A stretch of DNA of 64,000 nt from Methylotenera sp. (GTDB lineage: Bacteria; Pseudomonadota; Gammaproteobacteria; Burkholderiales; Methylophilaceae): positions 42,250-106,249 of the forward strand of contig DATHWX010000022.1 in assembly GCA_035460225.1 (NCBI GenBank), given 5' to 3'. How positions within the stretch are numbered: position 1 is the stretch's first letter; each line of letters starts with the position of its first letter. Positions 31,513 to 62,220 of the stretch are shown here, in pieces. Below the pieces are notes generated by a model. That model was not told the origin of the DNA. It made no database searches and was given only the letters and a program-made list of their open reading frames with translations. The translations under genes were made by a program, and so were the position numbers.

Positions 31513-31552
31513 TATAGGAATATTCCTACAAAGAAATAGGCTTACTTTCGAT
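31513..31552 (+). promoter_or_regulatory. Tandem palindromic boxes upstream of csbD
   Basis: TATAGG-AATATT-CCTACA (31513-31530, containing the perfect palindrome TAGGAATATTCCTA); second left half-site AATAGG 22 bp later. Confidence 0.65.
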
Positions 31553-31617
31553 ACGTAAAAACGCTGAGTTATGAGGTAATTGTGGAAAACTAAATCTGTT
31601 ATTTTAGGGAGATGCAA

Positions 31618-31821
31618 ATGAATCTGTATCAGATCGTTGGTAATTGGAATCAACTTAAAGGCGCAGTTCGTGAAGAATGGGGGACAATTACACATAATCA
31701 ATTTAATGTGATTATGGGTAAACGCGACCAATCAATCGGTAAACTCCAATCGGAATACGGTATTACTAAAGCCCAAGCAGAACGCCAGTTATATGGCTGG
31801 TCATCCAGGAATTATTATTAA
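31618..31821 (+). CDS. CsbD/YjbJ-family general stress protein
   Basis: GNWNQLKGAVREEWG...GKLQSEYGITKAQAE; agggag RBS favours the ATG at 31618. Confidence 0.88.
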   Translation: MNLYQIVGNWNQLKGAVREEWGTITHNQFNVIMGKRDQSIGKLQSEYGITKAQAERQLYGWSSRNYY

Positions 31822-31853
31822 TTCAAAGTTATCCTTAATTTCGAAGCTATTTG

Positions 31854-32177
31854 ATGATGAATTGGAATGATGTTGCGGGTGATTGGGCGGAATATAGCAA
31901 AAAAGCCCATAGTAACTGGAACAAACTTTCGCTGGAACAAGTGCAAAAAACTGACGGCAGCCGTGATGCATTGTCCAAACTTATCCAGGCTGGCTACCAA
32001 TGTAATACGCAAGAAGCTGAAAGCCAAATTGATGATTGGCTAAATAATCTCATGGGCCACACCCAAACGTACGATGAAAGTATTGATGAAAAATTAAAAG
32101 AAAATCAGGATACTGCAGAAACTATCGAAGAGCAGAATGAAGTAATGGGTTCGCCTTACCATAGAGGAATCTATTGA
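31854..32177 (+). CDS. CsbD-like protein with an acidic C-terminal extension
   Basis: MNWNDVAGDW...WNKLS...IQAGY...AESQIDDW matches the CsbD pattern. Confidence 0.75.
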   Translation: MMNWNDVAGDWAEYSKKAHSNWNKLSLEQVQKTDGSRDALSKLIQAGYQCNTQEAESQIDDWLNNLMGHTQTYDESIDEKLKENQDTAETIEEQNEVMGSPYHRGIY

Positions 32178-32193
32178 GTGAATAGTTATTGGT

Positions 32194-32247: not shown

Positions 32248-33138
32248 CTAATGACGTTGATCAAGACCATAGATACGGCCTGTCGCGCCAGGGTCATATA
32301 GAGCGCCTTCAGGATTGTATGGCGTTCCTTCATGTTGCTGGCGGCTTACTTGTTTAGCCGCAATCTTATCAGCGAGGCTAGGCAATACTTTGGATAAGAT
32401 GCTATTCATCACGGCCATGCCACCGATTCGCACGTCTCGGCCACCTTCTTCAGCGGCTTTCAATATCGCTTCTGCCACCTGTTGCGGATCTATCATAGGC
32501 GTCGGTAGTTTAGGTTCTTTATCCATGTAGTTTCTTGCGTGTTCTGGATAAGGCGTATCTACGGCCGTAGGTTGGATTAAAGTGATCGTTAGGTCAGAGT
32601 CATCTATGTTTTCCACTTCTACCCGTAGTGCATCAGTAAAGCCTTTAACTGCATGTTTGGATGCGCTATACATGCCTTGTAACGGGATGACAGCATCAGA
32701 TACTTCAGAGCCTACATTGATAAGTGCACCACCTGATTCTCTTAGATAAGGTAAAGCTGCCAGAGAACCATTCACTACACCCCAGAAGTTCGTATCGAAC
32801 AATTTACGGCTGTCTTGCTCACTCACTTCATCCAAACGGCCATAGATTGAAACGCCTGCGTCGTTCACCCAGGTATCGATCCTGCCGTATGTGCCAATAG
32901 CCGCATCGGCAATAGCATCGACTTGGTCACGGATGCCCACGTCAGCGACTACGGAAATCGCTTGACCATCCATGAATTCGATTTCATCTACAATGTTATC
33001 CAATATTTCCTGGCTGCGCGCTGCCAAGACCAGTTTTGCACCTCGCTCAGCCGCCAGCAATGCGGTACACAAGCCAATACCGCTGGAAGCACCGGTAATC
33101 ACGATGACTTGCTCAGATAAGTTTTTATGCGTTGCCAT
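32248..33138 (-). CDS. SDR family oxidoreductase
   Basis: ITGASSGIG, DTWVNDAG, YSASKH (YxxxK). Confidence 0.92.
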   Translation of the reverse strand: MATHKNLSEQVIVITGASSGIGLCTALLAAERGAKLVLAARSQEILDNIVDEIEFMDGQAISVVADVGIRDQVDAIADAAIGTYGRIDTWVNDAGVSIYGRLDEVSEQDSRKLFDTNFWGVVNGSLAALPYLRESGGALINVGSEVSDAVIPLQGMYSASKHAVKGFTDALRVEVENIDDSDLTITLIQPTAVDTPYPEHARNYMDKEPKLPTPMIDPQQVAEAILKAAEEGGRDVRIGGMAVMNSILSKVLPSLADKIAAKQVSRQQHEGTPYNPEGALYDPGATGRIYGLDQRH

Positions 33139-33169: not shown

Positions 33170-33236
33170 ACTCTATTTTTCTGTGGGTTAGTCAACAATC
33201 GGCTGATTCTTAAAAAGCTGTAAGAATTATTTGCTT
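33170..33236 (-). promoter_or_regulatory. Tandem boxes plus -10 element upstream of the SDR gene
   Basis: AATCGG-N6-CTTAAA (33197-33214) and TGTAAG-N6 (33219-33236) are 22 bp apart; TAGAGT on the minus strand (33175-33170) lies 21 nt downstream. Confidence 0.55.
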
Positions 33237-45017: not shown

Positions 45018-46217
45018 TTAATGGTGATGTGTCCTACCAATTAATCCTAAACCGAATTTATATAAGCCATAAGCGACCCAGGAAAGTATGCGCTTGGTTG
45101 TATGCCCACTCATCCATCGGTAAGGATTCACGCGATGTGCACTGTCAGTAATACATGTGAGCAAATCATTTCTCAGTATATTTGCAAAGTTTGAGTCGCG
45201 AATAACGACATTGGCTTCCTGTGCAAGCAGCAAGCTAAATGGATCAATATTAGAGGACCCCACAGTAGCCCAATAACTATCAATCACGGCGACTTTGCTA
45301 TGCATGAAGCCTTGGCGGTATTCATAGATCTCGATGCCATTTTTTAACAGGATGTTATAAAAAGCATGGGTTGCGAACATCATGAAATATTCCATGCGGC
45401 CTTGCAGCAGTAATACTACTTTTACATTACGTTTGGCTGCCGCAATCAAAGCATGACGAAATCGGCGTCCCGGCATGAAGTAAGCATTGGCGATAATGAT
45501 CTCGGTTTTAGCTTCACGGATCGCCTGCAAGTAAGTTTGTTCGATATCATGCTTATGGAAAATATTATCCCTGATCACAAATGCAGCTTCGATACCGTCT
45601 TCCATGGTCTCGGTTACATGCGGTTGTACCTGTTTTTGCCGGAACTGGTTTGGGTTTAACTTTGAAGATAATTCTGACGCCCAATCGGCACTCCAGTTAG
45701 GTCTCCAATAAGTACGCTGCCACATTTTTTTCACGCTGACCGTTAACTGGGTCAGTAAATTGCCTTCGATGCGCAATGCATAATCCAGGCGCGGCGGGGT
45801 TTTATCGGGTGTTTCACAATCGTTGATAATATTGATACCACCTACAAACCCGATTTTCCCATCTATTACCGTTACCTTGCGATGTAGCCGGCGCAGCCGG
45901 TTTCTTTTAAACGTCCAAGGCGATACCTGAGGTCGGTAAAACCTGACTTGGACGCCTGCATCTTTAAGTTCCTGTATAAAGCTGCGCGATAGCTCTTTGC
46001 TGCCAAATCCATCGATCAATAGGTAGGCTTTAATGCCGCGCTGTGCTGCTTGCTTTAGTGTATCGCCAATCATCCTGCCGGTTTCATCGTCGGCGTAGAT
46101 ATAAGTCTGGATATAGATTTCCTGCTGCGCCTGATTGATCGCATTAACCAAAGCAGGGAAGAAATCGCTGCCATTCCTTAGCAGCTCAATGTGGTTACCT
46201 TTTACAAAATGAATCAT
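45018..46217 (-). CDS. clsB: Cardiolipin synthase ClsB
   Basis: Two HKD motifs (HRKVTVID, HSKVAVID), no N-terminal TM; coupled to the ybhP-like gene. Confidence 0.9.
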   Translation of the reverse strand: MIHFVKGNHIELLRNGSDFFPALVNAINQAQQEIYIQTYIYADDETGRMIGDTLKQAAQRGIKAYLLIDGFGSKELSRSFIQELKDAGVQVRFYRPQVSPWTFKRNRLRRLHRKVTVIDGKIGFVGGINIINDCETPDKTPPRLDYALRIEGNLLTQLTVSVKKMWQRTYWRPNWSADWASELSSKLNPNQFRQKQVQPHVTETMEDGIEAAFVIRDNIFHKHDIEQTYLQAIREAKTEIIIANAYFMPGRRFRHALIAAAKRNVKVVLLLQGRMEYFMMFATHAFYNILLKNGIEIYEYRQGFMHSKVAVIDSYWATVGSSNIDPFSLLLAQEANVVIRDSNFANILRNDLLTCITDSAHRVNPYRWMSGHTTKRILSWVAYGLYKFGLGLIGRTHHH

Positions 46218-47765: not shown

Positions 47766-50024
47766 TTATACTGCCAGACCAGTCACTTGCTCGACCGGAT
47801 TCTCTTGTTCCGCTTGCTGAAATAATCGTACATAGCGTTGCAATGCATTCTCCAATGTCGGCATAAACAACCCTCTTTCGCTGGACAGTGCGCTGTACAA
47901 AGGCCGTGGTGCGCTGAGATTGAGTGCGGTATGTGGCATTGACTCTAATCTACTTGCGTCAAGCCCCGACATTTCACAAGCTTTGCTAGCCAAATCGATC
48001 CAGGAAATAGCTTGTGCATTAGATAAATGCCAAATTCCTTTTTCCTTATCGATCAGCAGATCCAACGAGGTATGCACTAAATCAGGCACATAGGTAGGCG
48101 AAACAACAATGTCGTTCGCAGCTGCAAATGAAGCGCCACTGCGCAATGTGTTCAGGGCTAGCGTTACAAAATTATGACTATCCCAAGGGCCGAAGAAAGC
48201 GCTGGTGCGTATTACCATCGCTTCAGGGTAAATATCCAGCACTCGGTACTCGGCGTCAGCCTTGCTTTTGCCGTATACGTTCAGAGGTGAGACAGCATCA
48301 CTTTCTACATAAGGCGTGTCTTTCGTTCCGTCAAACACCAAGTCGCTGGAAAACGTCATAAACTGGATCTTATGTCGTACACAGGCAATCGCCAGTACGG
48401 ACGCGCCTAATGTATTCTCACGGAAGCAACGTTCAGCTTCTTTTTCAGCATCATCGACCCGAACATAACCACCGGTATTGATGATTGCCCAAGGTTGGTA
48501 ACGCGCAATTGCTCGTTCTACAGAATTGAGGTCAGCGATATCCATATCTTTGCGGTTTAGTATTTGATAGGCCAAATTACGAGATTCACAGATACGGGCG
48601 AAAGCCTGGCCAAGCGTGCCGGTTGCACCCGTGATCAAGATTGGCTGGACATGATGGTTTTTTGCAAAGCGTTCCACAGAAATCGATGCCACCACATCAT
48701 TGGTCGCAACGGGCGGACAATCGAAGCGGCCGGGCCGGCGCCACCATCCATGCCCTTGCAGCACAGGGTGATCAAGCGCGGCGCCAACCGATAATTCGCG
48801 CATGAGACTCGCTAGTGCAGTAGGTCGTGGCAGCGGTGAACGGATATCAAATGGGCCGGGTTCATAGTAACCCCTACATTCAGTGATTAGACAATTCCAG
48901 TCGTAAGAACCGAGCAGTGCCCACACGGTGACGGCGCGAATATCGACACCATTTTCTCGCGCTGCTTTTGCCGCATCCCAAATTTCAAGGAGCCAGCGCA
49001 GTTGGTCCTCACGACAGGCATCGATATGAGCTTCGGTAACGGCGATTGGCAAGCCATAACGCTCCCAGGTTTCGTCCAGTAGCGGGCCAATCCCAGGGGT
49101 AGGGGTCGCTAATGCACGGGAAGCGTGAATATCAGCATGTTTTATCCCACCGTAGTCGTTGCAACACCCCGGATGATAACGGTCTGTGCGGTGGTCCAGC
49201 CAGCGCTCGCTGGTAATGTAATAATTGACGCCAATGATGTCAGGCTGGCAGATATTATCTTGAAACCAGGCTAGCTCATCCGGTTCGATTCCTGAATCAA
49301 GCATGTAATTCCACAAGGCATGCTCTGCATCAACTTTTCCGCATAACAAATCCCAAGCTAGCCAGCGCCGTTCGTTATAAAAATTCGCAAGTTCCGCCAT
49401 CTCTGATTTCGTGCTGTAGGTTTTGCTGATGTCGTCGGTTTGTACCAATTTGGCATTGGGATTGATTTTCCTGATGGCTTGCATGGACAAGACCACGGCA
49501 CGGCACTGATTAATCAGGGTACGAAGGAAGGTTCGGTCATCTTTGCCATGCGGGTACCACACGCCATACAGCCCTGAGAAGCGCGCCGTGGTTAAGGGCT
49601 CATTGACAGGAGTGTAATATTCAACCCACGGATAACGCTGGGCAACAGCGCCCGCAAACTCTGCCAATTGTTCAGCGAATGCCGGATCAGTAAGGTTGGT
49701 ATGCTGTGGGCCGCTGCCATGATGGATCAATCCTACAATTGGCGTAATTCCTAAGGCTCGCAAGCCAGATAAGCGCTCATCAGGCCATGACCAGTCAGCA
49801 GTGTTTATTCCCTCTGGCGCTGTTCTTTCCCAAAGTATGGGATAACGGATTGCGCGAATGCCTAATGAGGCAAAACGCTCTAAATCATCTTTGCGGATAG
49901 CGTGACCGTTTCTATCCATCTGGCTAAAGTATTCATCTCTTACGCGATTAACCGTGCATTCCAAGCCGCCCCACAATTCAATCAGTTTACTATGATTCTG
50001 ATCTAGTTCATTGTTTTTAATCAT
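47766..50024 (-). CDS. GH1-like glycoside hydrolase fused to a dTDP-4-dehydrorhamnose reductase (RmlD)-like domain
   Basis: N-domain WGGLEC, TPVNEP (acid/base), VTEAH (nucleophile); C-domain ITGATGTLG, SSDLVFDG, YGKSK, SPTYVPDL. Confidence 0.85.
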   Translation of the reverse strand: MIKNNELDQNHSKLIELWGGLECTVNRVRDEYFSQMDRNGHAIRKDDLERFASLGIRAIRYPILWERTAPEGINTADWSWPDERLSGLRALGITPIVGLIHHGSGPQHTNLTDPAFAEQLAEFAGAVAQRYPWVEYYTPVNEPLTTARFSGLYGVWYPHGKDDRTFLRTLINQCRAVVLSMQAIRKINPNAKLVQTDDISKTYSTKSEMAELANFYNERRWLAWDLLCGKVDAEHALWNYMLDSGIEPDELAWFQDNICQPDIIGVNYYITSERWLDHRTDRYHPGCCNDYGGIKHADIHASRALATPTPGIGPLLDETWERYGLPIAVTEAHIDACREDQLRWLLEIWDAAKAARENGVDIRAVTVWALLGSYDWNCLITECRGYYEPGPFDIRSPLPRPTALASLMRELSVGAALDHPVLQGHGWWRRPGRFDCPPVATNDVVASISVERFAKNHHVQPILITGATGTLGQAFARICESRNLAYQILNRKDMDIADLNSVERAIARYQPWAIINTGGYVRVDDAEKEAERCFRENTLGASVLAIACVRHKIQFMTFSSDLVFDGTKDTPYVESDAVSPLNVYGKSKADAEYRVLDIYPEAMVIRTSAFFGPWDSHNFVTLALNTLRSGASFAAANDIVVSPTYVPDLVHTSLDLLIDKEKGIWHLSNAQAISWIDLASKACEMSGLDASRLESMPHTALNLSAPRPLYSALSSERGLFMPTLENALQRYVRLFQQAEQENPVEQVTGLAV

Positions 50025-50086: not shown

Positions 50087-50104
50087 TGTCAGGGTTTACT
50101 GATG
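50087..50104. promoter_or_regulatory. Single palindromic box upstream of the GH1-RmlD gene
   Basis: TGTCAG-GGTTTA-CTGATG; no clear partner box at 22 bp. Confidence 0.45.
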
Positions 50105-50505: not shown

Positions 50506-51672
50506 TCAGCCTGGGGTCAAAACTACCTTGCGGCAGTACTCTTCTTTGTTATTGAAAATTTCATAACCTCTAGGCGCATCTTCCAGAGACATGCGATGCG
50601 TAATGATGTCTGCGGGTGTCAAGTCGCCGTTTTCGATAAACTCAAATAGCTCAGGTAAGTAGCGCTGCACATGGGTTTGGCCCATCTTGAAAGTGATGCT
50701 TTTATCAAACGCATCACCAAAAAGAAACGCATGAATAAATCCCGCATATACGCCGGGCACGCTGACAATACCGCCTCGCCTGACCGCCGCGATACACTGG
50801 CGTAAGGCTTCGCCGCTGCTACCTTCCATTTTTAGATTGGTCAGCACAGTTTCCACAGTGCTTCCTTTGGCTTCAAAGCCCACTGCATCAATCACTGCAT
50901 CAACCCCGCGGAATTGGGTATTTTCCAAAATGGTATGGGCAGGGTCATCGTCTACATCGAAATTGATGCTGATAGTGTTGTATTCTTTGTGAGCAAAATC
51001 CAGGCGATATTCGTGATGATCGACCATGAATATTGTCTCGGCGCCGCGCATTCTGGCACACGCTGCAGCCATTAAACCCACTGGTCCGGCACCGTAAATA
51101 GCCACCGTAGAGCCAGCCTGTACTTCGGCATTCAATACTGCCTGATAGCCGGTAGGCAGGATATCCGTGAGGAATAACACCTGTTCATCGGACAAACTGC
51201 CGTTGATAGGAAAGGGCCCAACGTTACCTTTGGGCACACGTACTAATTCAGCCTGTCCGCCAGGCACGCCGCCATATAAATGGCTATAACCGAATAAGGC
51301 GGCAGAGGGTCTTATGTCTTTTTTATTCATGATCGCGCCGCGGCCGCTATTGGTGGTTTCGCAGGCTGAAAAAAGACTCTTTTGACAGAAAAAACATTGC
51401 CCACAGGCAATCACAAAAGGAATGATCACTCGATCGCCTTTTCTTACGCGGGTCACAGCGCTACCGGTGTCTTCCACGATTCCCATGAATTCATGGCCCA
51501 AAATATCACCGTCTTTTACCAGGGGAATCTTGCCACGATACAAATGCAAGTCAGAGCCGCAAATCGCAGTGGCTGTGACTCTTAGGAGCACATCGTCATC
51601 TTCCAGCAATACGGGATCAGGCACGGTTTCGATACGAACGTCTTTAGCACCATGGTAGGTAAGGGCGCGCAT
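50506..51672 (-). CDS. Zinc-dependent dehydrogenase, glutathione-dependent formaldehyde dehydrogenase-like (YbdR family)
   Basis: ICGSDLH, GHEFMG, CGQCFFC...C, DILPTG, GAGPVG, DAVGFEA. Start at Met6 of the ORF with an aggag RBS. Confidence 0.9.
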
Positions 51673-51712
51673 ACTCACTCCTAACAATCAGTGACAAAAC
51701 AATAACTAAAGC

Positions 51713-51779
51713 ATTTTAGAAATGCCGCTGCATGTTATCTGTAGGCGCGCCCTGATTCGACTGTAGGATTTAACCTATT
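51713..51779 (-). promoter_or_regulatory. Tandem boxes plus -10 element upstream of the YbdR-like gene
   Basis: TGTAGG-N6-CTGATT (51740-51757) and TGTAGG-N6-CCTATT (51762-51779); minus-strand TAAAAT (51718-51713) is 21 nt downstream. Confidence 0.7.
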
Positions 51780-52452
51780 TAAAGTTTTTACTTGAAATTT
51801 TTACTGGCCAGACAAAGCTGCCATCCGTAACAAAGATTTTTTGGGCTTGATCGGTATCGATTACATACCCGCCAGTAAAATCGCCGAATGAAGGCAGAAG
51901 GGTATACGTGGCTTCGTGATAGAAACAAGGCAGATGCAGCCGCTGGCGGCCTTTGCCCTGCAATACGAATACCGGGTGAATATGTCCGGCAATCACGTGG
52001 TGAGTAGGATGCGGCTTGGGAGTGTGCTGTAAGGAAAGATGATGAAATAGGTAAGGCTCGGTAACGACCTTGATGTTGAGGTAATCTGGCGGATCGCCGG
52101 CTTTAAGGTCATGATTACCACGTACCAGCGCGCATTGAATATCCGGGTGCTTCTGCCGCCACCGCTGTAAGGCAGCTAGCGTGGAAGGAGCATGCGATTT
52201 AGGCGCATGTAAAAAATCCCCCAGAAAAATAATACGGTCAGTCGGATATTTCTCTATTAAAGCATCCAAGCGGTCCAGGTTCTTTTGTGTGGTACCGCGC
52301 GGTACCGGCTGGCCTAGCGCCCGGTAAGCAGCTGCCTTACCGAAATGAATATCCGCTATCAGCAATGTGCGCTGCTGCGGCCAGTAAATGGCTTTGTCTG
52401 CTAGTAGCCACAGGGTTTCGCCGCCGATGATTAAAGGCTGTTCTGTCTGCAT
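51775..52452 (-). CDS. pdeM: Ligase-associated metallophosphoesterase endonuclease (MPE/PdeM)
   Basis: ADIHFGK, LGDFLH, RGNHD, AGHIHP, LPSFGDFTGG; downstream of Lhr. Confidence 0.93.
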   Translation of the reverse strand: MQTEQPLIIGGETLWLLADKAIYWPQQRTLLIADIHFGKAAAYRALGQPVPRGTTQKNLDRLDALIEKYPTDRIIFLGDFLHAPKSHAPSTLAALQRWRQKHPDIQCALVRGNHDLKAGDPPDYLNIKVVTEPYLFHHLSLQHTPKPHPTHHVIAGHIHPVFVLQGKGRQRLHLPCFYHEATYTLLPSFGDFTGGYVIDTDQAQKIFVTDGSFVWPVKISSKNFK

Positions 52453-52461
52453 AAGGTTGAA

Positions 52462-55137
52462 TTAGAAACCGTGCCTGGGTTTTGGCAGCTTGATGCGCGG
52501 TAATCCGGTTTTGCGTACACGCTCTCGTTTGCGGCTTGCTGGTTCTGCCGCATTGAACTTGGTCTGTTCTTGTACGCTTTCTGCTGGGCTAAAACCTCCT
52601 TCGCCTGCAGCTTTCTCCAGGTCTGCGACCATACGAGCAATACGGTCAGCCAGCTTTTCGGAGCTGGAGCTTTCACGAAAACGCTCGACAAGTAAAGGAA
52701 AAGCAAATGGCGTGGGGCGTTTTACTTGCATCATATGCAAAGTTTTTTTCTGAAGATTAAGCAAAGTTTCCGAGAGTCTTTCTATTTCTAACTCCTGTCT
52801 TAAAACTTCTTGCTGGGCTTGGGTGAGCAAAAGATTACCAGGGTCATACTTCTGGAACACGTCATAAAATAAACTGGAAGAAGCCTGCAATTGTTTGGAG
52901 CTTTTAGGCGCGCCAGGAAAACCGGCAAAAACCAGTCCGGAGATGCGGGCAATTTCCCTAAACCTTCGCTGCGCCATTTGGCTCGCATTCAAACTGCCAA
53001 TCACGTCCTCTAATAAATTTTCAGTGCTAAAAATGTCAGGCGTGAACTGGCTTGCCCAGTCGATCTCAGTGGCAGAAAGTAGCTCGAATCCATAGTCATT
53101 TACAGCAATAGAAAAGGTATTCGCCTGGTGCTTACCGATACGCCATGCGAGTAGGCTAGCCAAACCCAGGTGTACGCTGCGACCTGCATATGGATAAAGG
53201 AACAAATGCCAGCCTTCGCGCGAATGCAAAGCTTCAGCAAGCAGAGTATCGTTGGTGGGCAGGGCAGACCAATCGGTTTGTACGTCGAGCAATGGCTTCA
53301 CGAGTTGCATTTCAGGGCCATCAAAATGCCCATGCGCTGCGGCATCCATGCGTGCAACGATAGCATTGGATAATTCGGTAGAAAGCGGCATGCGCCCGCC
53401 ATTCCAGCGCGGTACAGCGGCTTTTTTGCTGGTAGCCTTGCGCACATAAGCGGTCATCTCATGCACGCGTACCAGCTCTAATAATCGTCCGCCAAACAGG
53501 AAATGGTCGCCAGGTTTCAACCTTGCTATAAAACTTTCTTCAACGGACCCTAAGCTCTTGCCGGACGTGCCTTTGCTCCAGTATTTAACCGTCATGCTCG
53601 AATCGCTGACGATGGTGCCAATGCTCATGCGATGCCGTCTTGCCAGATGCCCGTCCGGTACATGCCACACGCCTTGCTCATCGGGTATGGCACGGCGGTA
53701 ATCGGGGTAGGCATTAAGCGAATTGCCGCCATGCCGCACGAAAGCCAGCGTCCATAGCCATTCTTCATCTGTAAGGTTACGGTAGGCATAACAGCTGCGG
53801 ACTTCTGCGAGTAATTCATCGGCGACAAAGCCGCCGCCAAGCGCTACCGTCACCAAATGCTGCACTAAAACGTCTAAGGGCTTGTGCGGCGATTCGCGCG
53901 GTTCTACATTACGTGCCGCAATGGCATCCTGTGCCGCGATAGACTCGATCATTTCCAGGCTATGCGTTGGCACCATAGTGAGGCGGGAAGGGCGCCCTGG
54001 CGCGTGCCCGGAACGACCTGCACGTTGCATTAAGCGGGCCACGCCTTTAGGCGAGCCGATCTGCAATACACGTTCTACGGGGAGGAAATCCACACCCAAA
54101 TCCAGACTAGAGGTACAGATCACCGCTTTCAATCGACCTTCCTTCAAGCCTAACTCTACCCATTCGCGTACGTTTCTATCGAGTGATCCGTGATGCAATG
54201 CAATCAAGCCGGCCCAATCTGGGCGTTCTTCCAGAATCGCCTGGTACCATATCTCACATTGTGAGCGGGTATTAGTAAAGACCAGCGCCGTACTGCTCTT
54301 TTCAATTTGCTCAATCACTTGCGGCAGCATGCGCAAGCCTAAATGCCCTGCCCACGGAAAGCGCTCAATGCCGGGCGGTAGCAAGGTGTCGATAAACAGG
54401 TCTTTAGCGACTTTGCCTTGTACGAGTAAAGCATTCTTGGCTGACGGGATAAGTACTTCCATGGCATGGTGCAAGTTACCTAAGGTTGCCGACAAACCCC
54501 AAGTCATAAGCTGCGGTTGCCACACGCGCAAGCGTGCTAACGCAAGCTGCAATTGCACGCCGCGTTTATTGCCAATGAGCTCATGCCATTCATCGACCAC
54601 TACCAATTTAAGCGTGGCGAAAGTCTCGGCAGCATCAGGCCGCGTCAGTAACAAACTCAAGCTTTCCGGTGTGGTAATGAGTGCTGTCGGTAACTGCTTT
54701 GCCTGTTTTGCGCGTTCGCTGCCAGAGGTATCGCCGGTTCGCAATCCTATGGTCCAATCTAATCCCAAGTCAGTCACAGGCGCTGTTAACGCACGTTCGG
54801 TATCCGCTGCCAATGCTCGCATCGGCGTGATCCATAACACCGTGAGAGGTGGTGCTTTGGGTTTGAGTTTGGGTTTTGCGATTACCACGTAATCCGGAGT
54901 AGCTGGCACATGCGGGTCCGCAAACCTGGCTAAGGCGCCAAGCCAGACCGCATAGGTTTTACCGGCACCGGTAGTCGCGTGGAGCATACCGGAGATGCCC
55001 GTGGATATTGCCTCCCAGACCTGCCTTTGAAAGGGGAAAGGCTGCCAGCCATTATGCGTAAACCAGGCTTCTGCAATGCCAGGCGCTTGAATAGGCGAGC
55101 TAGTAGGTGCAATTGGCGACAATTCGGGATATCTCAT
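52462..55137 (-). CDS. lhr: Ligase-associated DEXH helicase (Lhr-Core)
   Basis: [45 protein letters not shown]. Confidence 0.93.
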
Positions 55138-55140
55138 GAC

Positions 55141-56832
55141 TTAAGCCGCCTGCGATTTTATTAACTGCTGCGATGCCGTTGGCAGCAGCTCATGCAAGGT
55201 TTCCAGCGTATCCGCCTCTGCCAATGGCTTATCTTGCCGCCAGCGCAGCATGCGTGGAAAGCGCACGGCGATACCGCTTTTATGCCTGGAACTCAGGGCA
55301 ATACCTTCGAAGCCTAGTTCAAACACCATGGTTGGGGTCACGCTGCGCACCGGGCCGAATTTTTCTACTGTAGTTTTGCGGATGATGGCATCCACTTCGC
55401 GCATCTCGGCATCAGTTAAACCGGAATAAGCCTTGGCGAATGGCACTAGTTTGCGTTCTAGTACATTTTCCGGTGCATCCCATACTGCAAAAGTGAAATC
55501 TGTGTAAAGGCTGGCGCGTCGCCCGTGGCCGCGCTGTGCATAGATCAGCACGGCATCTACCGTGTACGGGTCTATCTTCCATTTCCACCACACACCTACG
55601 TCCTTGGTTCGGCCGACCCCATAACGCGCATCGCGCCGCTTCAGCATCATGCCTTCTACGCCTAAGCTGCGGGACGATTCACGTAATTTATCGAGCTCTA
55701 GCCATGATGCACCTGATAACAAAGGCGATAGCTGCAATTGAGGTTTGTTACATGCAGCCACTACGAATTCCAATTGCGTACGACGCGTAGATTGCGGCTG
55801 GTCGCGCCAATCTATGCCTTGCCATTCCAATAAATCATAAGCCAGCACTGCCACCGGTATATTCTCCAGAATCTTTGCGGTAAGGGTTTTGCGACCGATA
55901 CGCTGTTGCAGTAAAGCGAAAGCCTGTACCTGGCCAATACCGTCCTCACCGGCTTTCCATACTACGATCTCGCCATCGATCACCGTGCCGTCAGGCAACG
56001 TTTCTGCCAATGAAGCAAGCTCCGGAAAACGGTCTGTGACGAGTTCTTCGCCACGCGACCATACCCATAACTGGCCATCCCGCTTCACCAGTTGCGAGCG
56101 TATACCATCCCATTTCCATTCAACTTGCCATTGTGATGGCGGGCCGATCTGCGCTTCAAAATCGGTAGTTGGTAACTGCAAAGGATGCGCCAGAAAAAAG
56201 GGATAAGGCTGGCCTTCCAACCGTTCGTCTTTATCTTCATTGATAGGCGCAATGAGTCGCTGATAATGCTCTGCGCTAGGCCGGGCGGATAGGTCGGTAT
56301 AACCCACTAACCGATGCGCAATGCGTTTGGCGTCGATATTAGCAACGGCGGCTAGGGCACGCGTCACCAATAATCGCGAAACCCCAACGCGGAAGCTGCC
56401 GGTAATAAGCTTGATACACACCAGCTGGCTGCGTTTATCCAGTTCCTGCAATAAAGGTAAAAGCTGCTGCATTAATATTTCCGGCTGCAAGCCTCGCAAG
56501 GGCAGAAGTTTTTGTTCCACCCAAACCGCTAAACCATCTTCTGAGGTATAAGTAGATTCGGGCAACAACAAAGTCATGGTTTCCGCTAGGTCACCCACGG
56601 CTTGGTAGCTTTCTTCAAACAGCCATTCCGGCAAGCCGGAAGCTTGTAAAGTGAGCTCGCGCAATAGTTTAGTTGGAACCAACTGGCGTGGACGGCCACC
56701 GGAAAGGAAATACACCGCCCAAGCTGCATCTTCCGGCGTGCTGTTCCTGAAATAATCCTGTAGTGCCGCAAGTTTGGCGTTGCTGCTTGTAGTGGCGTCT
56801 AAACTGGTATATAAATCTGCAAATTCTTTCAA
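55141..56832 (-). CDS. ATP-dependent DNA ligase of the Exo-Lig-Lhr-MPE operon
   Basis: EWKWDGIR (adenylated Lys), IDGEI, EGMMLK, WWKWK, AVRFPR; TTG start overlaps the exonuclease stop. Confidence 0.93.
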   Translation of the reverse strand: MKEFADLYTSLDATTSSNAKLAALQDYFRNSTPEDAAWAVYFLSGGRPRQLVPTKLLRELTLQASGLPEWLFEESYQAVGDLAETMTLLLPESTYTSEDGLAVWVEQKLLPLRGLQPEILMQQLLPLLQELDKRSQLVCIKLITGSFRVGVSRLLVTRALAAVANIDAKRIAHRLVGYTDLSARPSAEHYQRLIAPINEDKDERLEGQPYPFFLAHPLQLPTTDFEAQIGPPSQWQVEWKWDGIRSQLVKRDGQLWVWSRGEELVTDRFPELASLAETLPDGTVIDGEIVVWKAGEDGIGQVQAFALLQQRIGRKTLTAKILENIPVAVLAYDLLEWQGIDWRDQPQSTRRTQLEFVVAACNKPQLQLSPLLSGASWLELDKLRESSRSLGVEGMMLKRRDARYGVGRTKDVGVWWKWKIDPYTVDAVLIYAQRGHGRRASLYTDFTFAVWDAPENVLERKLVPFAKAYSGLTDAEMREVDAIIRKTTVEKFGPVRSVTPTMVFELGFEGIALSSRHKSGIAVRFPRMLRWRQDKPLAEADTLETLHELLPTASQQLIKSQAA

Positions 56833-57893
56833 ACAGTGGCCTCGTTGATATTCGCATCAGCTTTGATATCAGGTTCAGTGCCAGGCTTAATATCAGCCTC
56901 GGCTTCAGCCGCTTCTTCGCCATATTCAGTAGTGAAACCTTGAGCATCCAAACCCTGTTCGCGCAGCCAGCGCACCATCACGTTTACCTGGCCATGCGTG
57001 ACGAAGACGCGTTCTGCACCTGTAGCCGTGATAGCGCTTTGCAGGCCTGGCCAATCTGCATGGTCTGACATGATAAAACCGCGATCGACACCACGGCGCC
57101 TGCGTGTGCCGCGTAGCTGCATCCAACCGCTGGCAAATGCGTCAGAATAGTCACCAAACCGTTTCATCCAGCTGCTGCCTTGAGCAGAAGGCGGCGCAAG
57201 TACGATGCTTTTGCGAATCTGTGTTGTGTCAGTCATTTCGCTCACATATTGCGTATGCGGCAGCGCTACGCCAGCTTCGCGGTAGACGCGGTTTAATGGT
57301 TCTACCGCACCATGCACTAGTATCGGTCCAATAGCGGGATTCAAGCCGGAGAGCAACCGCTGGGCTTTACCGAATGCATAACAGAACAAAACGCTGGTGC
57401 GGTTGTTATCCGCATTGCTTTGCCACCATTGGTTAATGTCAGCAAAGATTTCCGCTTGCGGACGCCATTTATAGATCGGCAGGCCAAAGGTAGATTCGGT
57501 AATATAGGTATGGCAGGCTACGCTTTCAAAAGGCGCACAAGTGCCATCATCTTCAACTTTATAATCTCCGGAAGCGACCCAGACTTCGCCTTTATACTCC
57601 AGCCGCACCTGGGCAGAACCGAGCACATGGCCGGCTGGGTGCAAGCTTAGTTTGACGCCATGGTGATTGATACTTTCACCGTATTGCAAGGCTGTTAGGT
57701 TGATCTCTGCGCCCAGGCGTTTACGCAAGATGCCTTCACCAGCTGCGGCTGCGAGGTAATGGCTGCTGCCGGTACGGGCGTGATCGCCATGACCGTGTGT
57801 AATGACAGCGCGCTCCACCGGACGCCACGGGTCGATATAGAAATTACCTGGCGGGCAATATAAGCCTTCAGGCCTTGCGATGATTAAATCCAT
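56829..57893 (-). CDS. Ligase-associated metallo-beta-lactamase/beta-CASP exonuclease
   Basis: ITHGHGDH, AGHVLGS, SGDYK, TESTFG, SDHADW, VTHG. Confidence 0.93.
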   Translation of the reverse strand: MDLIIARPEGLYCPPGNFYIDPWRPVERAVITHGHGDHARTGSSHYLAAAAGEGILRKRLGAEINLTALQYGESINHHGVKLSLHPAGHVLGSAQVRLEYKGEVWVASGDYKVEDDGTCAPFESVACHTYITESTFGLPIYKWRPQAEIFADINQWWQSNADNNRTSVLFCYAFGKAQRLLSGLNPAIGPILVHGAVEPLNRVYREAGVALPHTQYVSEMTDTTQIRKSIVLAPPSAQGSSWMKRFGDYSDAFASGWMQLRGTRRRRGVDRGFIMSDHADWPGLQSAITATGAERVFVTHGQVNVMVRWLREQGLDAQGFTTEYGEEAAEAEADIKPGTEPDIKADANINEATV

Positions 57894-57975: not shown

Positions 57976-58043
57976 TATAAGAAATTTCTTACATCACAAT
58001 CAGCCCATTCATGACACGTTAAAAATATTCCTAAAACTATAAT
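57976..58043 (+). promoter_or_regulatory. Palindromic boxes plus -10 element in the exonuclease/ku divergent region
   Basis: TATAAG-AAATTT-CTTACA (57976-57993), AATCAG half-site 22 bp later (57998), GTTAAA-AATATT-CCTAAA (58018-58035), TATAAT at 58038. Confidence 0.7.
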
Positions 58044-58071
58044 TATTCAGTTGATTCAATAGGATAAGACT

Positions 58072-58962
58072 ATGCCAAGACCACTGTGGAAAGGGGCGAT
58101 CAGTTTCGGCCTGATTCATATTCCGGTTGATCTGTACGCTGCCGAAAGCTCGCATCAGATTGACTTGGACATGCTGGATAAACGCGACTTTGCACCTATC
58201 GGTTATAAACGCGTGAATAAGAAAACCGGCAAAGAGGTCGAGTGGAAAGATATCGTCAAAGGCTATGAGTTTGAAGATAACCAATATGTTGTGATTAGCG
58301 AAGAAGACATCAAACGGGCGAACCCGGAAGCGACTCAGACCATCGATATTCTGGCTTTTATTGATGCAGACGAAATCTCTCCTATTTATTTTGACCAGCC
58401 TTATTACCTGGCACCTTCCAAGGGTGGAGACAAAGTCTATGCCCTGTTACGTGAGACGCTAAAGAAGTCCGGCAAGATCGCCGTGGCGCAAGTTGTTATC
58501 CGTGTGAAGCAGCACATTGCCGCGCTGATACCGATAGAAGACATGATCGTGCTGAACCTCCTGCGCTACGCCGATGACATGCGGGCGATGGATCAATACA
58601 AAGTGCCAAAGACATTAAGCGGAAAAACTGCGGTATCGGCTAAAGAAGTACAGATGGCTTTGTCTTTGGTAGAAGGCATGACTGAAAAGTGGGATCCAAA
58701 ACTTTACAAAGATAACTACCGCAACGACTTGATGAAGCTGATAGAAAAACGGATCAAATCCAAACAAACCAAAGTACTGGACGAAAGCGAACCGCCTGAA
58801 GCGGCGCCAACATCCAATATCGTCGACATTATGGCTTTGCTGAAACAAAGCATCGAATCTAAAACCAGCAAGGCTAAAGGCAGCAGTAAGGAAAGTAAAA
58901 CTGAAGCGAAAAGCACTAAATCATCGGGTAAAGGAAGCCCTAAACCAAGGAAAGCAGCATGA
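58072..58962 (+). CDS. ku: Non-homologous end joining protein Ku
   Basis: RPLWKGAISFGLIHIPV, IVKGYE, YFDQPYYL, Y.LLRE.L, basic C-terminal tail. Confidence 0.97.
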   Translation: MPRPLWKGAISFGLIHIPVDLYAAESSHQIDLDMLDKRDFAPIGYKRVNKKTGKEVEWKDIVKGYEFEDNQYVVISEEDIKRANPEATQTIDILAFIDADEISPIYFDQPYYLAPSKGGDKVYALLRETLKKSGKIAVAQVVIRVKQHIAALIPIEDMIVLNLLRYADDMRAMDQYKVPKTLSGKTAVSAKEVQMALSLVEGMTEKWDPKLYKDNYRNDLMKLIEKRIKSKQTKVLDESEPPEAAPTSNIVDIMALLKQSIESKTSKAKGSSKESKTEAKSTKSSGKGSPKPRKAA

Positions 58963-61577
58963 GTTTACAAAAATACTGGCTAAAACGTGATTTTAAAGAA
59001 ACGCCGGAGCCACGTGGTGAAGTTACTAAGTCGACCAAGCAATTGGCTTACTATATCCAGCGGCATCATGCCACCCGCTTGCATTATGATTTTCGCCTAG
59101 AACTCAATGGCACTTTAAAAAGCTGGGCTGTGCCCAAAGGACCAAGCCTAGATCCTGCCGACAAGCGCTTGGCTGTGCATGTAGAGGATCATCCGCTAGC
59201 CTATGGAACCTTTGAGGGGCAAATCCCCAAAGGCCAGTACGGAGCAGGGCAGGTGATTTTGTGGGATAGGGGTATCTGGAAGCCGCTAGGTGACCCGGAA
59301 AAAGGCTATCGCGACGGTAATCTAAAGTTCGAACTGCAAGGTGAAAAACTTTCTGGCAAATGGGCGCTAGTGAGGATGAAACCACGGCCAGATGAAGCAG
59401 GCGATAAAGAAAACTGGCTGCTCATTAAAGAAAAAGATGATGAAGCAAAAACAGGTGATGAAAGCCATATTACCGATTTAAGGCCGGAAAGCGTATTACA
59501 CCTAAAAAAGCCCGCAAAAAGTAAAGCTACCCAAGCGACGCAAAACATTGCTAAAACCCACACAGCCACACTAAAACCTATGGCATTACCCGCGCTGATC
59601 AGTCCTGAACTGGCAACGCTTGTAAAAACTGCACCCACAGGCGATGAATGGCTTTCCGAAGTGAAATATGACGGTTACCGCGCTTTAAGCCGTATCGAAA
59701 ATTCACATGCAGTGATTTATAGCCGTAACGGGAATGATTGGACGCGGCATTGGCCGCAGATAGCGGAACTGTTAGCAAAATTACCGGTGGACGAAGCGTG
59801 GCTAGATGGTGAAGTCGTCGCAATCAAAGATGGCAAGATCAATTTTGGCGCGTTGCAGAATTATGATCCTGCGCACAAAGATGCGGATATCGAGCTTAAG
59901 TATTACATCTTTGACCTGATCTATTTGAATGGCCAGGACATCAGCCACTTTCCTTTGCTGGATAGGAAAAGCTTGCTGAAAGAGATACTGTCCTCGCAAC
60001 GCAAAGATTCGATGCTGCAATACAGCGACCATGTGGCGGGTCAGGCAAAGCAGGCGTTTGAGAATGCCTGCGAGCAAGGCATTGAGGGCATCGTCATCAA
60101 ACATAGCAGCTCGCCTTATGTGCAGGCGCGCACCCATAACTGGCTTAAGTTGAAATGTTCACAGCGTCAGGAGTTCGTCATTGGCGGTTATACGGATCCC
60201 GAAGGCAGTAGGCAAGGCTTTGGCGCAATACTCTTAGGCTATTACAACGACAAGAAAGAGCTGTTGTATGCAGGTCGAGTAGGCACTGGTTTTAATGGTG
60301 CAATGATTGATAAGCTTGCCGCGCGCTTTAAACCTCTTACTCAATCTAAGGCAGCCTTTGCAAATCCTCCTAGGGGTTACGAGGCGAAAGGCGTGCATTG
60401 GCTACAGCCAAAATTAGTGGCTGAAGTTAATTTTGCGGAATGGACTTCTGATGGCATCGTGCGCCACGCTTCATTCGTTGAGATGCGTGAAGATAAGCCT
60501 GCCGAACAGATCATCCGTGAAGTTCCGGCTAACGTAAAAGCAATCGAATCTGAGGAAGCATCTGCTATGAAAGAAGCTCAAACAAGTACTCATTCCGAAC
60601 CAAAATCAGTTGCCGCAGATAAAGCCAGTTCAAAGAAAACCAGTTCAAAACAAACCACTGATGTTGGCAAAACTGATACTACAACCGCTGGCAGTAACGT
60701 GATACAAGGCGTGACCATTAGCCATCCGGAACGGGTTATTTACACACCGCAAAAAATCACAAAGCTGAACGTGGCCGAATACTATCAAGCTGCAGAACGC
60801 TGGCTGATGCCCCATTTGATTGGGCGTCCATTGTCTTTACTGCGCTGCCCGGATGGCACCGAAACAGAATGTTTTTTCCAGAAACACCTAGATGAATTTA
60901 AGCTCAAGCATGTGCAGAAAATCGATGTGGATGCTAATGACAAAGGCAAATATCTGGTCGCCAATAACATAGCCAGCGTCATCGAACTGGTGCAGATGGG
61001 TGTGATCGAGCTGCATACCTGGGGCTCAACCACCAAGAATATTCACCAACCTGACCGCTTTATTTTTGACTTGGACCCTGACCCTGCGGTGCCATGGGAA
61101 AAAGTAATTGAAGGCGCAAGTCTAGTAAGGTATCTGCTGGAGAATATGGGGCTGGATTGTTACCTTAAAACTACCGGAGGCAAAGGTTTGCATATCGTGG
61201 TACCTATCAAGCCTGAGCATGAATTCCCCGTCATTAAAGCCTTTACCAAAAGTATCGCCACACACCTTGCCGAAACGATCCCTACGCATTTTGTTGCGGT
61301 GATGAGCAAGGAAAAAAGGAAGAACAAGATATTTATTGATTACCTGCGTAATGGGGAAGAGGCGACTGCGATTGCCGCATATTCATTACGTGCCAGGCCT
61401 GGCGCCGCGATCTCAGTGCCATTGCGGTGGGATGAATTAAATGCGGATATGAAATCTGACAGCTTTAATATGCTGAATATCTATGAGCGTTTGCTGGATT
61501 TAAGGCAGGATCCGTGGGAAAAGTATTACACGTCCAAGCAAGTCATTACACAAGCGATGCTGAAAACTTTTGAATAG
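58959..61577 (+). CDS. ligD: NHEJ DNA ligase D (phosphoesterase-ligase-polymerase order)
   Basis: HHATRLHYDFRLE and SWAVPKGPS (PE); EVKYDGYR (LIG); FFQKH, FDLDP, KTTGGKGLH and IFIDYLRN (POL); ATGA overlap with ku. Confidence 0.97.
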   Translation: MSLQKYWLKRDFKETPEPRGEVTKSTKQLAYYIQRHHATRLHYDFRLELNGTLKSWAVPKGPSLDPADKRLAVHVEDHPLAYGTFEGQIPKGQYGAGQVILWDRGIWKPLGDPEKGYRDGNLKFELQGEKLSGKWALVRMKPRPDEAGDKENWLLIKEKDDEAKTGDESHITDLRPESVLHLKKPAKSKATQATQNIAKTHTATLKPMALPALISPELATLVKTAPTGDEWLSEVKYDGYRALSRIENSHAVIYSRNGNDWTRHWPQIAELLAKLPVDEAWLDGEVVAIKDGKINFGALQNYDPAHKDADIELKYYIFDLIYLNGQDISHFPLLDRKSLLKEILSSQRKDSMLQYSDHVAGQAKQAFENACEQGIEGIVIKHSSSPYVQARTHNWLKLKCSQRQEFVIGGYTDPEGSRQGFGAILLGYYNDKKELLYAGRVGTGFNGAMIDKLAARFKPLTQSKAAFANPPRGYEAKGVHWLQPKLVAEVNFAEWTSDGIVRHASFVEMREDKPAEQIIREVPANVKAIESEEASAMKEAQTSTHSEPKSVAADKASSKKTSSKQTTDVGKTDTTTAGSNVIQGVTISHPERVIYTPQKITKLNVAEYYQAAERWLMPHLIGRPLSLLRCPDGTETECFFQKHLDEFKLKHVQKIDVDANDKGKYLVANNIASVIELVQMGVIELHTWGSTTKNIHQPDRFIFDLDPDPAVPWEKVIEGASLVRYLLENMGLDCYLKTTGGKGLHIVVPIKPEHEFPVIKAFTKSIATHLAETIPTHFVAVMSKEKRKNKIFIDYLRNGEEATAIAAYSLRARPGAAISVPLRWDELNADMKSDSFNMLNIYERLLDLRQDPWEKYYTSKQVITQAMLKTFE

Positions 61578-61638
61578 CCATGCTTAACTCAGCTTCGTTA
61601 AGACAGCATCGTTTGTACTGTTACTGTTAGTGGAAGCG

Positions 61639-62052
61639 TTAAAGCGGGAAGAAATCCTGACCTACGCAACGGCCAATCACGATCTCGTCATTTAATTTTT
61701 TAAAGCTTTTGATGGTTGATAATAGTCGTGGATCATCCATTAACTGATGAAGGCTGTTTGAATCGCTTTCGAAAAGCAATCGTTCCATCGCAGGATTCCA
61801 GTCGAGAAATAGAGATGAAAAATATTGCAAATCCACAATATGGTTATTCATCATCACGCAGATCGCGAAAGCGTTTTTTTGCTGCGTTTGAAATTGAGCA
61901 GGAATCTTAAAAGTATCTTCCCTTAACGCAGGCGGGGAGTAATTGTTTTGAAAGAAACGGCCGAGATGGTCGCTGCAATAATCCCTGCTGAATTCAACCA
62001 AATCAGTAAATTGAATCGATTTGTTCAATGAAATATTTGCCGATGCCCGCAT
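61639..62052 (-). CDS. Hypothetical protein
   Basis: 137-aa ORF with a taagga RBS, filling the gap between ligD and the cco genes; no known motif. Confidence 0.55.
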   Translation of the reverse strand: MRASANISLNKSIQFTDLVEFSRDYCSDHLGRFFQNNYSPPALREDTFKIPAQFQTQQKNAFAICVMMNNHIVDLQYFSSLFLDWNPAMERLLFESDSNSLHQLMDDPRLLSTIKSFKKLNDEIVIGRCVGQDFFPL

Positions 62053-62153
62053 TGCTTGTTCCTTATGATGTACCTATATCAATGGTCCTATATTGATGGC
62101 ATAGGCTTACATGAACCTTACAAAAGCTAAATCAAATATTTTTTGATTAATAA

Positions 62154-62220
62154 CTTCAAAGATTTCCTACAAATTTTTCAGATTTGGCTGATGGAAAATA
62201 ACTGGATTTAATAATAAATT
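62154..62220 (+). promoter_or_regulatory. Tandem boxes plus -10 element upstream of the cbb3-like operon
   Basis: N6-CCTACA half-site (62166-62171) then TTTCAG-ATTTGG-CTGATG (62176-62193) at 22-bp period; TAAATT at 62215 is 21 nt downstream. Confidence 0.55.

Follow-up and report, generated by a model that had tools for sequence, protein, structure and literature searches.

A conserved tandem-palindrome promoter element in Methylotenera and the probable stress regulon of NarL/FixJ-type response regulators

The 64,000-nucleotide stretch analysed in this work (G000:C22:42250-106249, hereafter the window) is part of contig C22 of G000, a Methylotenera metagenome-assembled genome (MAG) of 1.92 Mb in 25 contigs. 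One of its proteins shows 100% identity to a protein from a Methylotenera sp. MAG contig, all relatives of that protein being from Methylophilaceae. An earlier reading of its letters alone, referred to here as the sequence-only reading, had described 18-bp palindromes in tandem with a 22-bp period before a number of genes including csbD and ku, and had attributed them to a response regulator controlling a general stress regulon. The tandem palindromes are a real, conserved control element. They are probably the sites of a response regulator of the NarL/FixJ family and would mark out roughly 40 promoters of the sigma-70 type as one stress regulon of this Methylotenera genome, and two paralogous regulators, designated RR-A and RR-B, are the likely binders. 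The overall interpretation given earlier is largely right, with motif enrichment, conservation and the spacing to the -10 element all in its favour.

All 14 dyad boxes listed for the window are present there and read as described. An exhaustive count of perfect palindromes of the type X6-N6-rc(X6), where rc is the reverse complement, revealed no over-represented hexamer arm, and since the motif is too degenerate for counts of this kind, position weight matrices (PWMs) were used instead, the first of them being symmetric and built on seven of the above boxes as seeds. The refined consensus of the 18-bp dyad obtained after iteration is TGTAAGAATATTCTTACA, which is equivalent to TGTAAG-N6-CTTACA. 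The genome contains 25 sites with at least 14 bits, 24 of which are intergenic, the intergenic share of G000 being 9.5% by a crude gene model and the G+C content of intergenic DNA 35%. When compared with dinucleotide-preserving shuffles of intergenic DNA, the intergenic sites number 23 against 3.6 ± 1.9 at this threshold and 10 against 0.7 at 16 bits or more, which amounts to a 6- to 14-fold excess over the AT-matched background, and with the seeds excluded about 17 new sites remain against 3.6 expected. A PWM trained on 39 sites outside the window gives the primary boxes of the sequence-only reading 12.9-22.1 bits, and strong boxes are dyad-symmetric in both halves.

The proposed 22-bp period proved to be exact in an offset scan around 43 primary sites: a second box of at least 9 bits is located at offset 22 from nine of them, as opposed to zero to two at any other offset from 10 to 69, and the mean PWM score is -8.9 at offset 22 and about -20 at the others. 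Contigs C9, C18 and C20 also contributed new pairs with this period, as did C22 farther on. The fixed spacing to a -10 element is likewise seen as a peak of TAnnnT hexamers 21-22 nt after the proximal box, with 11 and 9 of 86 oriented sequences having such a hexamer start at 61 and 62 nt from the start of box 1, respectively, versus a mean of 2.7 (standard deviation 2.1) at other offsets.

Oriented promoters were then aligned and a two-part composite model was iterated, resulting in the consensus atgTAAGnaaATTCCTACA - 4 nt - aATCAGAaTtntCCTAaT - 21/22 nt - TAaAAT for box 1, box 2 and the -10 hexamer. Conservation is strongest in the right half of box 1 and in the left half of box 2, which often reads AATCAG. 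At 14 bits or more the composite has 53 matches in the genome including 49 intergenic ones. In extended intergenic DNA, there are 46, 41, 35 and 27 matches at thresholds of 14, 18, 22 and 26 bits versus 0.8, 0.1, 0 and 0 in shuffles, although this comparison is circular, the model having been trained on the sequences that it counts. Removal of overlapping registers leaves 43 candidate promoters, of which 16 lie in the region C22:73-166 kb (the island) and 27 elsewhere. The distal dyad would be centred near -64.5 and the more degenerate proximal one near -42.5, two helical turns (22 bp) apart. With the -10 hexamer 21-22 nt past the 18-mer, the 14-bp core of box 2 ends where a -35 element with a 17-bp spacer would start. 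No -35-like hexamer emerges in the composite consensus, so the promoters should need an activator.

It is hardly credible that the pattern arises as a by-product of the AT-richness of intergenic DNA, or that an alternative sigma factor and not a transcription factor recognises it. The low intergenic G+C content and the outcome of the perfect-palindrome count would agree with a by-product, but the numbers of sites in shuffles, the exactness of the 22-bp offset and the dyad symmetry of the strong boxes argue for a genuine element, as does the conservation of the architecture in diverged orthologous promoters described below, and the only sigma factors found in G000 are RpoD, RpoH, RpoE and one ECF-like protein.

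The relatives used for comparison were 24 genomes of the genus and 120 genomes of Methylophilaceae (116 of them at least 90% complete, 29 genera), with orthologous promoters coming from the genomes of two sister species, G006 and G024. In both of the latter, the offsets of box 1, box 2 and TATAAT in the ku promoter are by eye the same as in the window, within flanks that cannot be aligned, the Ku protein being 90% (G006) and 77% (G024) identical to that of the window. The promoter of the DUF4142 gene keeps by eye the order of two boxes, 21 nt and TAnTAT (TACTAT and TAGTAT), with some of the boxes scoring low. The promoters of the C20:3105-type gene, the hemerythrin gene and the DUF326 gene retain the architecture in both genomes and that of the csbD gene on C9 in G006, all with composite scores of 23-34, and before the first csbD gene of the island G006 has a 17.8-bit box at the same distance (87 nt) with a weak composite of 14.3. 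The geometry of two boxes and a -10 hexamer, for which the sequence-only reading had expected conservation in orthologous promoters, is thus kept in G006 and/or G024. None of the csbD, KaiC, hemerythrin-like and DUF326 homologues of greater divergence, which come from G008, G009, G014, G022, G011, G017, G018, G030, G031, G033, G035 and G040, shows the architecture (best composite below 3), and the genomes of these box-less homologues are those without RR-A. The betaproteobacterial scope claimed earlier does not hold in this form: what was found is a core around RR-B extending over Methylophilaceae, and among the promoters tested in relatives boxes are confined to the three sampled Methylotenera genomes possessing RR-A. 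The density of TARG-N6-CYTACA is 6-17 per Mb in the eight RR-B-positive genomes of the genus versus 2-7 per Mb in the other sixteen, a 2- to 3-fold difference.

Seven regulators with a GerE-type domain exceed the Pfam cut-off in G000, in addition to one weak sub-threshold match in the ECF-like sigma gene. The regulator predicted to be encoded outside the window has two candidates among them, both of the NarL/FixJ type and both with promoters of the same architecture as the putative targets. RR-B (G000:C10:225854-226486) has a canonical receiver, with DD, D, T/S and K present, and aligns over its full length to the structures of VraR, DevR, NarL and EvgA. In the operon, two DUF1328 genes, a DUF883 gene and a holin-X-like gene are located upstream of RR-B, and genes coding for a REC-only protein and an EncFtn-like ferritin downstream of it; the divergent genes code for a CHASE3/HisKA_3 kinase (CHASE3, HisKA_3 and HATPase_c domains) and two BON/EF-hand proteins. 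The operon is preceded by a full composite promoter with a score of 35.8. Orthologues of RR-B with 75-89% identity are present in 41 of the 120 Methylophilaceae genomes and in 12 of the 29 genera. In Methylotenera, Methylobacillus, Methylovorus, Methylophilus and other Methylophilaceae, 46 full-length loci with G+C contents from 38 to 59% were compared, and 43 of them possess a composite promoter directed towards RR-B and located 0.7-1.8 kb upstream, and further composite promoters at these loci point at genes beyond the kinase. RR-B appears to autoregulate via the same promoter type across Methylophilaceae, and this family-wide promoter footprint at the RR-B loci is the strongest argument for the element being bound by a response regulator of the RR-B type.

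RR-A (G000:C22:135340-135969), encoded 29 kb past the window end, consists of REC and GerE domains (PF00072 and PF00196) and is 42% identical to RR-B. It is an atypical member of the NarL/FixJ family with an incomplete canonical phospho-acceptor pocket, as GG replaces both Mg-binding aspartates (DD) and N replaces the Thr/Ser switch residue, with D52 and K102 kept; the degenerate pocket is conserved in three orthologues. No kinase gene adjoins RR-A among the annotated neighbouring genes. Its promoter has a composite score of 30.5 with TACCAT at 21 nt, and boxes flank the orthologues in G006 and G024 as well. Among the 24 genus genomes, RR-A, Ku, DUF4142 and DUF326 were found only in G000, G006 and G024, the same three genomes whose tested orthologous promoters have boxes. 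A receiver-degenerate NarL-type clade, with YG or DG in place of DD and NGS at the switch Ser/Thr, is also observed in Methylophilus, Methylovorus and Methylotenera and carries the recognition-helix string of RR-A, VSVFRSKILKKM; atypical paralogues of RR-B, as far as can be judged from these proteins, may be common in Methylophilaceae.

Besides the circularity of the composite counts, several points weigh against this interpretation. The homologues of csbD, KaiC and hemerythrin in genomes with RR-B only have no boxes, so RR-B alone fails to explain the large regulon. The sites of RR-A and RR-B could not be told apart by box sequence: a preference for the CCTACA or the CTTACA half-site was considered as a divider of the two and rejected, the ratio of these half-sites being 9:7 in island promoters and 13:14 in the others (p = 0.75). 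For every gene compared, the closest homologues in any one of G000, G006 and G024 are those of the other two (identities of about 90% and 65-80%), so the three may be closely related, in which case the co-occurrence of RR-A and boxes may reflect one or two evolutionary events. The G000 assembly is 80.9% complete, so another regulator may be unassembled. Metatranscriptome contigs from relatives (four runs from two studies, 90-99% identity, mostly 95-99%) cover only the 5′ part of ku and do not extend to the exo operon on its other side. Two of them, each of 151 nt and from a different sample within one study, start at 58050, 7 nt past the TATAAT of ku, which is a weak hint of a start there; another contig over ku begins at 58003, and RNA contig X1 begins upstream of the predicted ku -10, but such contigs cannot define starts.

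The mechanism suggested for RR-A and RR-B starts with the CHASE3/HisKA_3 kinase, which would phosphorylate RR-B. RR-B~P would then activate its own operon and RR-A, and RR-A would act without phosphorylation on many stress promoters including those in the window. At the promoters, two head-to-head dimers on one helix face would recruit RNA polymerase in the way BvgA~P does in Bordetella. The identity of the binder, the sign of regulation, the order of the cascade and the inducing signal are all what we infer from sequence.

BvgA~P occupies DNA in the form of head-to-head dimers with a spacing of 22 bp on one helical face, and its promoters contain a high-affinity distal site followed by weaker sites, the most proximal of which abuts a poor -35 (PMC7250471). 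The primary site of Pfha is TAAGAAATTTCCTA (PMC7250471), and its 14-mer is found verbatim at window position 47090, inside box 2 of the DUF4142 promoter, which begins at 47088. The Methylotenera element shares with the BvgA promoters Pfha, Pptx and Pfim3 the inverted heptad half-sites of TTTCCTA type, the 22-bp centre-to-centre spacing with a strong distal and a weaker proximal site, the location of the proximal site against a poor or absent -35 (the starts being predicted ones here) and a -10 of TAAAAT type, and BvgA is likewise a NarL-family response regulator of about 210 aa. Unlike the BvgS-type hybrid kinase with periplasmic VFT domains, the kinase of RR-B contains CHASE3, HisKA_3 and HATPase_c only. 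There would also be two dimers per Methylotenera promoter compared to three to six in the BvgA system, the regulon is made up of the stress genes of a methylotroph with a free-living habit and not of virulence genes, and the receiver-degenerate paralogue RR-A is extra to the BvgA system.

A repressor or an anti-activator occluding the -35 region, with stress relieving the repression, could account for the same boxes but is an unlikely alternative. The proximal 18-mer extends to position -34, and a site reaching -35 could repress, which is a further point against the activator reading; RR-A with its non-canonical receiver could also compete with RR-B. On the other hand, the lack of a conserved -35-like hexamer suggests that an activator should be needed, the boxes are wholly upstream of the -10 with no overlap with it or with the start site, and the operons of the regulators themselves carry the element, which fits positive feedback. 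The same geometry serves activation in the BvgA system (PMC7250471).

Of the two likenesses claimed in the sequence-only reading, that to the GacA box stands, the GacA/UvrY box TGTAAG-N6-CTTACA (PMC4950607, PMC4682653) having the same consensus, while as regards the RcsAB box the BvgA sites turned out to be closer. The GacA/UvrY regulators control a few small RNA (sRNA) genes, in each case through a single site between -75 and -196, whereas in Methylotenera there are about 40 protein-coding promoters with tandem sites. The best NCBIfam match of RR-B is the UvrY/SirA/GacA model NF007018, with scores of 171.7 bits for RR-B and 97.8 bits for RR-A against an equivalog cut-off of 280, so neither is a member. 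It seems reasonable on these comparisons to describe the element as a BvgA-type promoter architecture with a GacA-type half-site. The RcsAB box has a similar core, TAAGAAnnTTCCTA, and its binder also belongs to the NarL/FixJ family; RcsAB acts at single boxes, and the scores with the RcsB model NF008098 are 38-75 bits against a cut-off of 235, indicating no RcsB equivalog. DevR/DosR of Mycobacterium is another NarL-family regulator with palindromic boxes and a stress or dormancy gene set. As proposed for Methylotenera, a NarL-type response regulator and not a sigma factor governs a multi-gene survival regulon, and DevR (3c3w, E 4.6e-32) is among the closest solved structures to RR-B, but the box sequence and the sensor kinases are unrelated and DosR has no atypical paralogue.

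The identity of the consensus with the published GacA/UvrY box could also mean that the binder is a third NarL-type regulator, RR-C (G000:C10:144905-145543), which tops the three regulators on NF007018 with 210.2 bits. This is rather improbable, as that score still falls under the family cut-off of 280 and the presumed orthologues of RR-C (about 28% identity to RR-A, about 74 bits) are present in most genus genomes, including those with box-less csbD genes. In the genome scans, the surroundings of RR-C and of its kinase are free of PWM matches of at least 10 bits. A search of G000, at its 80.9% completeness, for CsrA (PF02599) gave no match, and no Csr/Rsm RNA was detected at Rfam thresholds in 140 kb of target loci. 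The known GacA/UvrY sites, moreover, are single and far upstream of sRNA genes and not in tandem against the -35 of protein genes.

LuxR-type activators typically bind palindromes centred near -42.5, which is where the proximal boxes are centred. A quorum-sensing-type LuxR homologue (G000:C11:17089-17805, minus strand) acting on lux-box-like sites was considered as well and is held to be still less probable than RR-C. The protein has a GerE helix-turn-helix, and its orthologues (90% identity in G006 and 80% in G024, none in G008 or G014) follow the phyletic pattern of the boxed promoters. As the homologue shares this pattern with RR-A, the pattern alone cannot decide between the two, which counts against the preferred reading. 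However, G017 has a LuxR homologue with 41% identity and no boxes at the homologues tested, there is no box near the C11 gene, and it is the RR-B operon whose composite promoter recurs across the genera of the family, in a comparison covering RR-B loci only. Lux-type boxes are of the form CTG-N10-CAG and 2 bp narrower per half-site, phased arrays with a 22-bp period being a BvgA trait. The N-terminal region of the C11 protein looks autoinducer-binding, and the nearby 195-aa open reading frame (ORF) C11:16068-16655 is a candidate for a LuxI-type synthase.

The targets assigned to the candidate promoters genome-wide include two CsbD loci, DUF1328 (twice), DUF883, a holin-X/YqjE-like protein, two BON and EF-hand proteins, MscS, DUF2383, DUF4142, two hemerythrin-type proteins, two DUF326 proteins, an entericidin-like lipoprotein, a glycine-zipper lipoprotein and several low-complexity hydrophilic proteins (hydrophilins). 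They are joined by GlgX, KaiC, a DinG-like helicase, Ku-LigD, topoisomerase IB, an esterase, a short-chain dehydrogenase (SDR), a Zn-dependent alcohol dehydrogenase, ccoS-ccoN, an EpsA-type regulator and RR-A itself. This content looks like that expected of a general stress or desiccation regulon, which agrees with the general-stress target set proposed earlier, a judgement that leans on established knowledge of the RpoS, SigB and EcfG regulons, and the boxed genes would be co-regulated, as their shared promoters suggest. With the RpoS (Gammaproteobacteria), SigB (Firmicutes) and EcfG-PhyR (Alphaproteobacteria) regulons the set overlaps in CsbD, DUF1328/YtjA, DUF883/ElaB-type and BON/OsmY-type proteins, hydrophilins, MscS, glycogen or trehalose enzymes and Ku-LigD. 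Unlike those sigma-driven regulons, Methylotenera has sigma-70-like -10 elements with the specificity in the activator boxes. No protein exceeds the cut-off of the RpoS model (TIGR02394) in any of the 24 genus genomes or the 120 family genomes, but of 16 further families belonging to the order 8 have one that does, and so has the control, E. coli.

A wider proposal, offered tentatively and held to be somewhat nearer to doubtful than to probable, is that Methylophilaceae run their general stress response via a CHASE3 kinase and RR-B acting on BvgA-like phased dimer arrays, and that the phosphorylation-independent RR-A was inserted below RR-B in one Methylotenera lineage, expanding the regulon to about 40 promoters. 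If so, the RR-A step would have brought in many hydrophilins and KaiC as well as non-homologous end joining (NHEJ) repair and a divergent cbb3-type oxidase, and an activator would functionally stand in for a stress sigma factor. The system would also offer a naturally occurring example of a regulon that has grown in connection with a receiver-degenerate paralogue. How a general stress response operates without RpoS, SigB or EcfG is a largely open question for Betaproteobacteria. For Methylophilaceae, methylotrophs that form an abundant family in fresh water and soil, a testable answer is given here in the form of a cis-element, a base-pair-precise grammar and about 40 predicted targets, together with candidate regulators and a candidate sensor kinase. 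The core module is also present in Methylobacillus, Methylovorus and Methylotenera versatilis, relatives that are cultured and genetically tractable, and the composite RR-B promoter was seen in Methylobacillus flagellatus and Methylotenera versatilis. Promoters of BvgA architecture have until now been studied in the virulence regulon of a pathogen, and their range would be extended to a free-living organism. A limited search of the full-text literature found no description of a stress regulon of this kind in Methylotenera or Betaproteobacteria, and as far as such searching shows the regulon is previously undescribed.

In the window, the composite model supports six of the seven regions claimed, with scores of 24-32, and Pfam agrees with the names given earlier to the flanking genes. 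The csbD promoter (31513-31552, plus strand) comprises a strong box 1 (31513-31530; 21.1 bits, or 20.8 bits by the PWM trained outside the window) and a degenerate box 2 (31535-31552) with a composite score of 26.3; as noted earlier it does not fit the -10 spacing, there being no TAnnnT at 21-22 nt. It is followed by csbD (31612-31821, plus strand; Pfam CsbD, E 1.2e-13) and a second CsbD-like ORF at about 31857-32042 matched by a CsbD query. The four hexamers for which a distance of 21 nt had been claimed, TAGAGT, TACCAT, TAAAAT and TAAATT, are all located exactly 21 nt from the proximal box. The first belongs to the SDR promoter (33170-33236, minus strand; box 1 33219-33236, box 2 33197-33214, TAGAGT 33170-33175, composite 24.1), which drives a gene with the Pfam domain adh_short (32248-33138, minus strand). 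The Zn-dependent alcohol dehydrogenase gene (50506-51687, minus strand; Pfam ADH_N and ADH_zinc_N) has a promoter of the same make-up (51713-51779, minus strand; box 1 51762-51779, box 2 51740-51757, TAAAAT 51713-51718, composite 32.4).

The DUF4142 promoter (47066-47132, plus strand) consists of box 1 (47066-47083), box 2 (47088-47105) and TACCAT (47127-47132), with a composite score of 27.0, and precedes the gene at 47162-47683 (plus strand). The same boxes are shared by the divergent operon (45018-47083, minus strand) of a ybhP-like gene (Exo_endo_phos) and a clsB-like gene (PLD/cardiolipin-synthase-like), assigned with Pfam, where the composite in the minus orientation is 30.6 and the -10 is ambiguous, the predicted hexamer falling within the longest ORF. 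The region that did not stand is the single dyad at 50087-50104 before the GH1-RmlD fusion gene (47766-50024), which with 7.9 bits and composite scores of -4.3 and -10.3 is indistinguishable from chance. The absence of the motif before housekeeping genes at 1-20 kb, reported earlier, agrees with the absence of any composite match in window positions 1-31 kb.

The region between the exo and ku operons had been claimed as a whole, and the part that stands is the ku tandem. The ku-ligD promoter (57976-58043, plus strand) is composed of box 1 (57976-57993), box 2 (57998-58015) and, at the earlier stated distance of 22 nt, TATAAT (58038-58043), scores 30.2 and precedes ku (58072-58962) and ligD (58959-61577), both on the plus strand with Pfam Ku and LigD domains. 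The exo operon (51775-57893, minus strand; by Pfam, a metallo-beta-lactamase-like exonuclease, an ATP-dependent ligase, an Lhr helicase and a phosphoesterase) shares box 1 only, and the composite in its own orientation is -6.1. The third box reported here (GTTAAAAATATTCCTAAA, 58018-58035, 12.9-13.8 bits) falls in the -35 spacer region. G006 retains it, but in G024 its place is taken by an unrelated G+C-rich sequence, which makes it improbable that a binding site of its own is present here. The ccoS-ccoN promoter (62154-62220, plus strand) has box 1 at 62154-62171 with a conserved right half, box 2 at 62176-62193 and TAAATT at 62215-62220, a composite score of 31.2, and lies before ccoS (62247-62495; weak Pfam FixS match) and ccoN (62477-63967; COX1), both on the plus strand.

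Several observations concern individual loci outside the window. The KaiC homologue (G000:C10:151603-153270, minus strand; Pfam E 2.8e-114) is located behind a 20.5-bit box; KaiC is rare in the genus, and the sole other homologue found, 50% identical and from G008, has no box. The promoters at G000:C22:109340 (plus strand) and G000:C15:51851 (minus strand) are paralogous, with an identical box 2, AATCAGCCATAGCGTGAT, and the genes behind them are paralogous too, coding for acidic proteins of low complexity (165 and 133 aa) without a Pfam match. Those at C19:33857 and C13:5384 belong to duplicated units of promoter plus DUF326 gene with an identical TAATCTGAACT past the spacer; GacA-style sRNA genes were considered behind these two promoters and C22:114613 and rejected, since the regions downstream, which begin with long leaders, code for DUF326 proteins and for a small basic protein, and Rfam gave no Csr/Rsm RNA. 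The Methylophilales-1 sRNA (RF03011, 107 bits) was detected at G000:C19:30003-30102 (minus strand), 3 kb from one of the DUF326 regulon promoters, with no link to a box seen. Three phased boxes (G000:C20:29920, 29942 and 29964) are situated about 250 nt before the gene of the EpsA-type (XrtB/PEP-CTERM-associated) regulator (C20:30236-31045), and a PEP-CTERM protein (C3:74388-74972) is also encoded behind a regulon promoter, both of which hint at a link of the stress regulon to exopolysaccharide/PEP-CTERM export.

Inside the island, a cyclic di-GMP (c-di-GMP-I) riboswitch (G000:C22:132777-132877, minus strand; 63 bits with a gathering score of 35) precedes the gene at C22:131429-132646; the riboswitch is located between a methyltransferase gene and glgX, about 2.5 kb from RR-A. 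Two tRNA genes are found at G000:C22:143383-143632 (minus strand), within the 90-kb stretch of C22 that holds the 16 regulon promoters. This stretch is syntenic in G024, where DUF4142, Ku and RR-A are encoded on one contig with similar spacing.

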